Shown here: piece by piece, positions 48,430 through 48,690 of the stretch | Position numbering within the stretch: the first letter of the stretch is position 1 | How the letters are laid out: the number at the start of each line of letters is the position of its first letter | Origin: Escherichia coli | GTDB taxonomy: Bacteria > Pseudomonadota > Gammaproteobacteria > Enterobacterales > Enterobacteriaceae | Strand: one strand, 5' to 3' | NCBI RefSeq assembly: GCF_003334315.1 | Contig: NZ_QOWR01000002.1 | DNA: 64,000 bases | The notes under the pieces: model-generated | What the model was told of the DNA's origin: nothing | Seen by the model: only the letters and a program-made list of their open reading frames with translations | Databases searched by the model: none | Made by a program: the position numbers and the translations under genes

Positions 48430-48690
48430 AAAAAACCTCACTAAAATTATGGTTACCAGAATCAGGGCAGTCTTAGGAGTGGCGGCATATAGCCAAAATA
48501 ACGTGAGCGGGTCCATGCCCGACAGAATCGTTACTCTCTCCCATCCGGACTCTAACCGTCGGCCCCGGAATTACACCGGATCTGCTGTCCTTTGAGTTCG
48601 CACCCAAAGCGCTCGCGGGCTTTCAACTGAGTTGATTTACCGCCGGTGGGGAATTTCGCCCCGCCCTGAGAATAAGCGGATTCACTATAA
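48430..48690 (-). ncRNA. sroG: FMN riboswitch (RFN element, ribB leader / SroG)
   Basis: Minus-strand sequence CTTATTCTCAGGGCGGGGCGAAATTCCCCACCGGCGGTAAATCAACTCAGTTGAAAGCCCGCGAGCGCTTTGGGTGCGAACTCAAAGGACAGCAGATCCGGTGTAATTCCGGGGCCGACGGTTAGAGTCCGGATGGGAGAGAGTAACG matches the conserved FMN aptamer; lies in the 5' UTR of ribB. Confidence 0.85.

Follow-up and report, generated by a model that had tools for sequence, protein, structure and literature searches.

The ribB gene of E. coli lies on the minus strand of the DNA analysed here, a 64-kb stretch referred to below as the window, and is preceded by a leader that carries an FMN riboswitch. The DNA of the gene is 100% identical to that of RefSeq genomes in which 3,4-dihydroxy-2-butanone-4-phosphate synthase is annotated at this place. 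On its upstream side ubiK runs divergently (plus strand, 48799-49089). The main features of the locus are the following:

47772..48425, minus strand: ribB, 3,4-dihydroxy-2-butanone-4-phosphate synthase, 217 aa, the regulated gene (ORF list)
47710..47741, minus strand: intrinsic terminator closing the ribB transcript, a 13-bp stem followed by a U tract (terminator scan)
48529..48677, minus strand: FMN riboswitch aptamer (RFN element) with helices P1-P6, leader positions 1-149 (RF00050 and PGAP)

In the PGAP-annotated genome NZ_CP025842.1 the features follow in the order ygiL, ubiK, 'riboswitch / FMN riboswitch', ribB, yqiD and zupT, and the FMN riboswitch feature of that record (1624-1772 of the extracted locus) corresponds exactly to positions 48677-48529 of the window. 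All PGAP-annotated E. coli genomes carry an 'FMN riboswitch', while the RefSeq record of K-12 MG1655 (NC_000913.3, 3184467-3184839, equivalent to 48426-48798 of the window) lists neither a riboswitch nor a sroG feature and indeed no feature at all between ribB and ubiK. An earlier note on this DNA had held that the element would be missed by protein-only annotation; this is right in principle and agrees with the MG1655 record, but in practice PGAP annotates the element. The same note described the region as free of ORF entries, which is essentially correct, as the only mechanically called ORFs of the leader region are 44-48 aa long (48376..48516, minus; 48449..48595, plus; 48473..48607, minus) and none of them is annotated in RefSeq.

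The locus is a constant part of the E. coli genome. Each of the 5,426 complete E. coli genomes contained the 1.1-kb stretch 47700-48800 with an identity of at least 95%, several of them with 100%, and the 325-nt leader was at least 99% identical in 5,391 of the 5,426. The leader region occupied 5,429 places in these 5,426 genomes; at least one genome has two copies, and one copy is located on a plasmid. Further upstream, the window carries an intact fimbrial usher gene yqiG as an 837-aa ORF (49975-52488, plus strand), a gene that IS2 has split into a pseudogene in K-12 MG1655 and that is truncated in strain 720632; the intact yqiG indicates that the window derives from a non-K-12 strain. An IS1A element is found between ribB and yqiD in E. 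coli strain cM8a (1364-2061 of the extracted locus). Disruption of the ribB leader by IS1 in this strain was considered and rejected, since the IS1A copy lies downstream of ribB and leaves the riboswitch untouched.

Identity and conservation of the FMN aptamer

Using the covariance models of 4,227 Rfam families, we scanned positions 46000-51000 and obtained a single strong match, that of RF00050 (FMN riboswitch) at 48677..48529 on the minus strand, with a score of 120.9 bits (E = 8.6e-29) against a gathering score of 66.2 bits. The alignment is untruncated and spans model positions 1-138 of 138, and the same match was returned when the whole window was scanned at gathering thresholds (E = 1.1e-27). 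All consensus helices of RF00050 were aligned in the window sequence, those features of family membership that can be read from the sequence were all found, and the 3' end of the aptamer is positioned 104 nt upstream of the ribB AUG on the same (minus) strand. The earlier note had placed an FMN aptamer on the minus strand within the ribB leader and had named a covariance-model search as the way to check it; that search was passed decisively, and the PGAP feature at identical coordinates confirms the placement. The element is the E. coli ribB FMN riboswitch itself, not merely one that is similar to it, and it is already known, being annotated in public genomes and studied in detail.

Weaker matches of the scan of 46000-51000 were dismissed. 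An AdoCbl-II match overlapping the aptamer reached 22.3 bits, below its gathering score of 36.5, and the snoZ105 and mir-999 matches were likewise sub-threshold. The STnc240 match at 47703-47773 on the minus strand (29.1 bits, gathering score 55) coincides with the ribB terminator hairpin and was attributed to the terminator and not to a small RNA gene. Elsewhere in the window, two full-length matches to SIB RNA (RF00113) on the minus strand, at 57372-57521 and 57747-57896 (147.7 and 141.5 bits), represent the Sib antitoxin small RNAs of tandem type I toxin-antitoxin loci. Additional matches above gathering scores, at 20480-20543 (plus), 3580-3656 (both strands) and 14629-14699 (minus), belong to the ES173 sRNA (99 bits) and to the REP-derived naRNA4 (92.6, 68.1 and 60.1 bits).

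The unconstrained minimum-free-energy fold of the whole leader misfolds P5 and P6 and has a z-score of only -0.93, and for this reason the Rfam consensus was used for the aptamer structure. To follow the element across species, we sought the pattern CCGACGGNNNNAGTCCGGATGGGAGA, which spans P6 and J6/1, in one genome per species and obtained at least 120 loci from many phyla. Among the loci listed, 31 are followed by a full-length ribB whose start lies 127-250 nt beyond the motif; these are distributed over Enterobacterales (27), Desulfobacterales (2), a Vibrio (1) and a Clostridia MAG (1). Rfam scanning of 18 other species revealed an FMN aptamer upstream of ribB in every one of them (99-126 bits). 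In the Clostridia MAG, a Marinisporobacter, the FMN riboswitch (120.5 bits) is located directly upstream of a ribB homologue whose product is 63% identical to the E. coli protein, with a T-box leader and a PyrR site nearby; the features of this locus are found at 93-300, 4958-5082 and 5229-5379 of the extracted locus.

The window and the 27 Enterobacterales leaders were aligned (n = 28), and covariation of the aptamer was assessed on the Rfam helices together with the lineage-variable outer parts of P3 and P4. Across the 28 species 93.8% of the cells in aptamer helices are paired, and compensatory changes occur at 13 pairs (99 cells). The covariation score was 0.247, compared with 0.101 for column shuffles, none of which reached the observed value in 500 trials, and with at most 0.099 when the 3' partners were slid. 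P1 is paired in 99.1% of cells; at the consensus P4 position G68-A92 none of the 28 species has a canonical pair. Identity among the leaders amounts to 94-95% in the aptamer core and 95% in the junctions, and falls to 55-71% in outer P3 and P4, which vary yet co-vary.

The 149-nt aptamer bears the name sroG in the literature, and premature termination would release short leader RNAs; both would suit a locus whose main product is an independent trans-acting small RNA, SroG, instead of a cis regulator. We regard this as very unlikely, given that conservation is tied to ribB in every species examined, that deleting the element derepresses ribB in cis, raising both ribB mRNA and riboflavin output (PMC9885008), and that the literature searched contained neither a target nor a trans phenotype.

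Leader numbering and the expression platform

When the origin of the leader is set at G48677, every base named by Eschbach et al. 2024 (PMC11571811), namely C175, G176, U181 and G149, matches the window sequence. The probe sites 137-146 (in P1, GGAGAGAGUA), 184-193 and 218-227 (UCUGGUAACC) and the pause near the AUG coincide with those of the same study, leader 141-149 reads AGAGUAACG and 175-183 reads CGUUAUUUU, and the ribB AUG begins at leader position 253, adjoining the published 247-249 pause. This base-for-base agreement of the numbering means that the window carries the experimentally studied sequence. The start of transcription and the candidate promoter are placed as follows:

48677..48677, minus strand: leader +1 (G), probable transcription start (published numbering)
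48684..48689, minus strand: candidate ribB -10 hexamer TATAGT, 6 nt upstream of +1
48707..48712, minus strand: candidate ribB -35 hexamer TTGCTG, 3/6 match to TTGACA, with a 17-nt spacer to the -10

We infer both hexamers from the sequence. Conservation supports the -10 box, since TATAGT or a one-base variant occurs at the same distance in 28/28 Enterobacterales leaders (mean identity 98%), and its position agrees with the published +1 numbering. The candidate -35 hexamer is too weak to be picked up by a consensus promoter scan.

Downstream of the aptamer, and including the P1 strands with which it interacts, the expression platform comprises the following parts, all on the minus strand and given with leader positions in brackets:

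48668..48675, minus strand: P1 5' strand UUAUUCUC (3-10; Rfam alignment)
48531..48538, minus strand: P1 3' strand GAGAGUAA (140-147), the anti*-P1 5' strand being 141-149 (Rfam alignment, PMC11571811)
48495..48503, minus strand: anti*-P1 3' strand CGUUAUUUU (175-183; unconstrained folds, PMC11571811)
48472..48480, minus strand: conserved block ACUCCUAAG (198-206; conservation and complementarity to the aptamer)
48453..48468, minus strand: switch block GCCCUGAUUCUGGUAA (210-225; conservation and dual pairing)
48436..48441, minus strand: Shine-Dalgarno region GUGAGG (237-242; enclosed by the sequestering stem)
48431-48429, minus strand: published pause region (247-249; PMC11571811, PMC5234074)
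48417..48430, minus strand: sequestering stem 3' strand UUACCAUGAAUCAG (248-261), including the AUG at 48425-48423 (folds and conservation)

The interval 48430-48690 delimited in the earlier note extends from the -10 box to leader position 248, and thus covers the aptamer completely and the expression platform for the most part. The -35 box (48712-48707) lies outside it, and of the 3' strand of the sequestering stem (48430-48417) it takes in the first base, 48430, and no more.

The switch block can pair with either of two partners. Its positions 210-216 (GCCCUGA) are complementary to U9-C15 (UCAGGGC; 48669-48663), the end of the P1 5' strand plus J1/2, and this pairing is the anti-P1 helix of the ON state. 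Positions 213-225 pair with 248-261 in the 13-bp sequestering stem of the OFF state. Each of the two pairings of block 210-225, with 9-15 and with 248-261, is 100% paired in the 28 species. In the aligned leaders the block shows 98% identity although it is non-coding, with 15 of its 16 bases invariant, and UUACC together with the first three codons (248-261) is 100% identical; the linkers at 150-174 and 184-197 reach only 63% and 31%. The sequestering stem is paired in 28/28 species, where 12 of its 13 pairs are invariant and the single change, A216 to G, preserves pairing, and the GAGG core of the Shine-Dalgarno sequence is likewise present in all 28. The OFF structure as a whole is 97.4% paired, as against 33-55% with the partners slid, and the ON helices together are 94.8% paired, as against 42-52%; of the latter, anti-P1 is paired in 100% and anti*-P1 in 90% of cells. 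Because the bases are almost entirely invariant, the platform pairings lack support from compensatory changes. What speaks for these helices is complementarity and strong conservation, and the conservation could partly reflect other constraints, as 253-261 are codons 1-3.

For anti*-P1, an alignment-free duplex test with shuffled linkers as controls reached significance in none of the species taken singly; typically 10-60 of 200 shuffles equalled the native duplex, because the U-rich linker pairs readily with the purine-rich strand. Pantoea stewartii, Morganella, Arsenophonus and Providencia have a weak duplex or none. Published mutational RNase H data back this helix, C175 is an RNA polymerase pause site, and FMN protects P1 and the sequestering stem as well as positions 215-227 from RNase H (PMC11571811). 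The authors of that study regard the structures of the expression platform in the region of about 150-210 as not fully settled.

Folding of growing transcripts predicted P1 at 149 nt, anti*-P1 at 183 nt and anti-P1 at 216 and 247 nt, with the sequestering stem forming in the full-length 282-nt RNA. The predicted order agrees with the published window of co-transcriptional sensing, whose limits are the pauses at 175 and 247. Equilibrium folding produced no clean switch: the predicted pairing of Shine-Dalgarno and AUG was 0.61 and 0.65 with P1 forced, versus 0.64 and 0.53 with the ON helices forced, and the inner sequestering stem persisted in the forced ON fold. The switch is not demonstrable by thermodynamic folding alone, and the predicted behaviour fits the published kinetic, co-transcriptional model.

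The block ACUCCUAAG may contribute a further pairing. Its C199-A204 are complementary to U135-G140 (48543-48538), which comprise the J6/1 junction and the first P1 base, and unconstrained folds stack this pairing on anti*-P1. The block is 83% identical among the 28 leaders and adjoins the stretch of 31% identity, and the pairing is formed in 95.8% of cells. It is conceivable, and we propose it tentatively, that ACUCCUAAG forms with U135-G140 a third ON-state helix stacked on anti*-P1. Such a helix would mean that, in the absence of FMN, the entire 3' side of the binding pocket is tied up in a composite anti-aptamer. The loop of a small hairpin (184-194) would then lie exposed at about 187-191, in broad agreement with published RNase H data, in which accessibility peaks near 195 and is low toward 214 (PMC11571811); the published profile is similar with and without FMN and is therefore non-discriminating for this helix. 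In the literature examined we found no description of the pairing.

Rho-dependent termination and control of translation

The earlier note assigned the regulation to both transcription termination and translation initiation. Both levels are supported by published experiments, with the qualification that termination is Rho-dependent and that our scan found no intrinsic terminator in the leader. Passages of PMC11571811 (citing Hollands 2012 and Pedrolli 2015), PMC5499598 and PMC10085680 describe how FMN stabilises P1 and the stem that sequesters the Shine-Dalgarno sequence and the AUG, and how mRNA is lowered via Rho-dependent termination. Control of RNA polymerase occupancy on ribB, as seen by ChIP, is lost in the rho R66S mutant, and the gene has a Rho termination score of 3.1 (PMC5499598). 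With purified components in a single-molecule assay, Rho termination on the ribB leader responds to the ligand analogue ribocil-C (PMC10085680), and in the minimal, ribosome-free in vitro system of that paper ribocil-C raises stand-by termination by 7 percentage points. The published background of termination is low (6-16%). For the same sequence, FMN protects P1 and the sequestering stem with a Kswitch of about 176-206 nM; the value for nascent transcripts is about 176 nM, and that for the pause at position 175 is 23 nM (PMC11571811). FMN also prolongs the pause near the start codon (PMC5234074).

In the classic mechanism of the family, as in Bacillus subtilis ribD, FMN lets an intrinsic terminator hairpin and U tract form in the leader, and the wording 'transcription termination' of the earlier note would permit this reading. 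The ribB leader has a U7 run at 243-249 that follows a weak AACC/GGUU pairing. The terminator scan, however, gave no minus-strand site from 48426 to 48528. Next to the U run the sole hairpin is one of 4 bp with a loop of 13 nt, and the loss of control in the rho mutant (PMC5499598) argues in the same direction; a mechanism of the Bacillus type is extremely unlikely. The result of the consensus scan is consistent with Rho-dependent rather than intrinsic termination.

Whether FMN acts on Rho directly bears on a second reading, in which the riboswitch is purely translational and termination by Rho is an indirect result of the untranslated mRNA, as proposed for thiM, with no direct exposure of a rut site by FMN. 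In its favour, all 28 species conserve the sequestering stem over the Shine-Dalgarno sequence and the AUG, indirect coupling was shown for thiM (Bastet 2017), and the C-over-G bias of the leader at 151-225 is only modest (C 0.30-0.33, G 0.17-0.27). Positions 121-150 are rich in G (G 0.43, C 0.10-0.13), and rut sites have no accepted sequence test. Against this, Bastet 2017 puts ribB, together with mgtA, in the class controlled directly via rut exposure (PMC5499598); ligand-dependent Rho termination takes place in vitro without ribosomes (PMC10085680), and the published termination sites lie within the expression platform. We therefore consider a purely translational riboswitch unlikely.

The best explanation of the locus, to which we assign a probability of roughly 0.95, is that of the E. 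coli ribB FMN riboswitch (also SroG), in which an aptamer is combined with sequestration of the Shine-Dalgarno sequence and AUG and with Rho-dependent termination. In this mechanism a 252-nt 5' leader would be transcribed on the minus strand from about G48677, and its positions 1-149 would form the FMN aptamer with its six helices. With abundant FMN, the nascent aptamer would be bound and P1 (3-10 with 140-147) locked, so that block 210-225 becomes available for pairing with 248-261; the Shine-Dalgarno sequence and the AUG would then be buried and the start of translation blocked. The FMN-bound leader would also expose a Rho-binding sequence, and Rho would terminate transcription in the leader or early in ribB. 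When FMN is scarce, P1 would fail and its 3' strand would be captured first by 175-183 in anti*-P1, after which the 5' edge of the aptamer (9-15) would pair with 210-216 in anti-P1. Formation of anti-P1 would leave the sequestering stem incomplete, and ribB would be transcribed and translated. Our own analysis showed what the aptamer is, where it lies and that it covaries, that the alternative pairings are complementary and nearly invariant, and that the leader lacks an intrinsic terminator; the literature supplied the evidence that FMN binds, that termination depends on Rho, where the polymerase pauses and in which window of transcription the ligand is sensed.

The ribB riboswitch among known systems

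The element in the window and the ribB FMN riboswitch of E. coli K-12 (SroG; RF00050) are the same element, with the same numbering, the same neighbours (ubiK divergent, ribB downstream) and the same PGAP coordinates; nothing of substance differs, apart from the window coming from a strain other than MG1655. The riboswitch of B. subtilis ribD (ribDEAHT) shares the aptamer family, the ligand, the OFF-switch behaviour and co-transcriptional sensing aided by pauses, but it works through an intrinsic terminator and anti-terminator, whereas E. coli ribB uses Shine-Dalgarno/AUG sequestration and Rho. In this respect ribB resembles the Mg2+ leader of Salmonella mgtA and the E. coli thiC, thiM and lysC leaders, which likewise join translational control to termination by Rho and show pausing close to the start codon, although their ligands and aptamers differ from those of ribB. 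Control of Rho is classed as direct for ribB and mgtA, and for thiM it is indirect, by way of translation.

The finding is of no value as a discovery. The element is textbook knowledge and is annotated automatically by PGAP. Its confirmation shows that a riboswitch aptamer can be recognised from the raw sequence, with the strand correctly assigned. The FMN riboswitch is a validated antibiotic target (ribocil, roseoflavin). The mapping given here may serve as a convenient reference, in which the published helices, pauses and probe sites are placed in window coordinates together with a conservation profile of 28 species. The only mildly new point is the conserved block ACUCCUAAG. If true, its helix with the 3' side of the aptamer would add no new kind of element and would refine the known mechanism, and thus the block might provide a small lead for studies of co-transcriptional folding.
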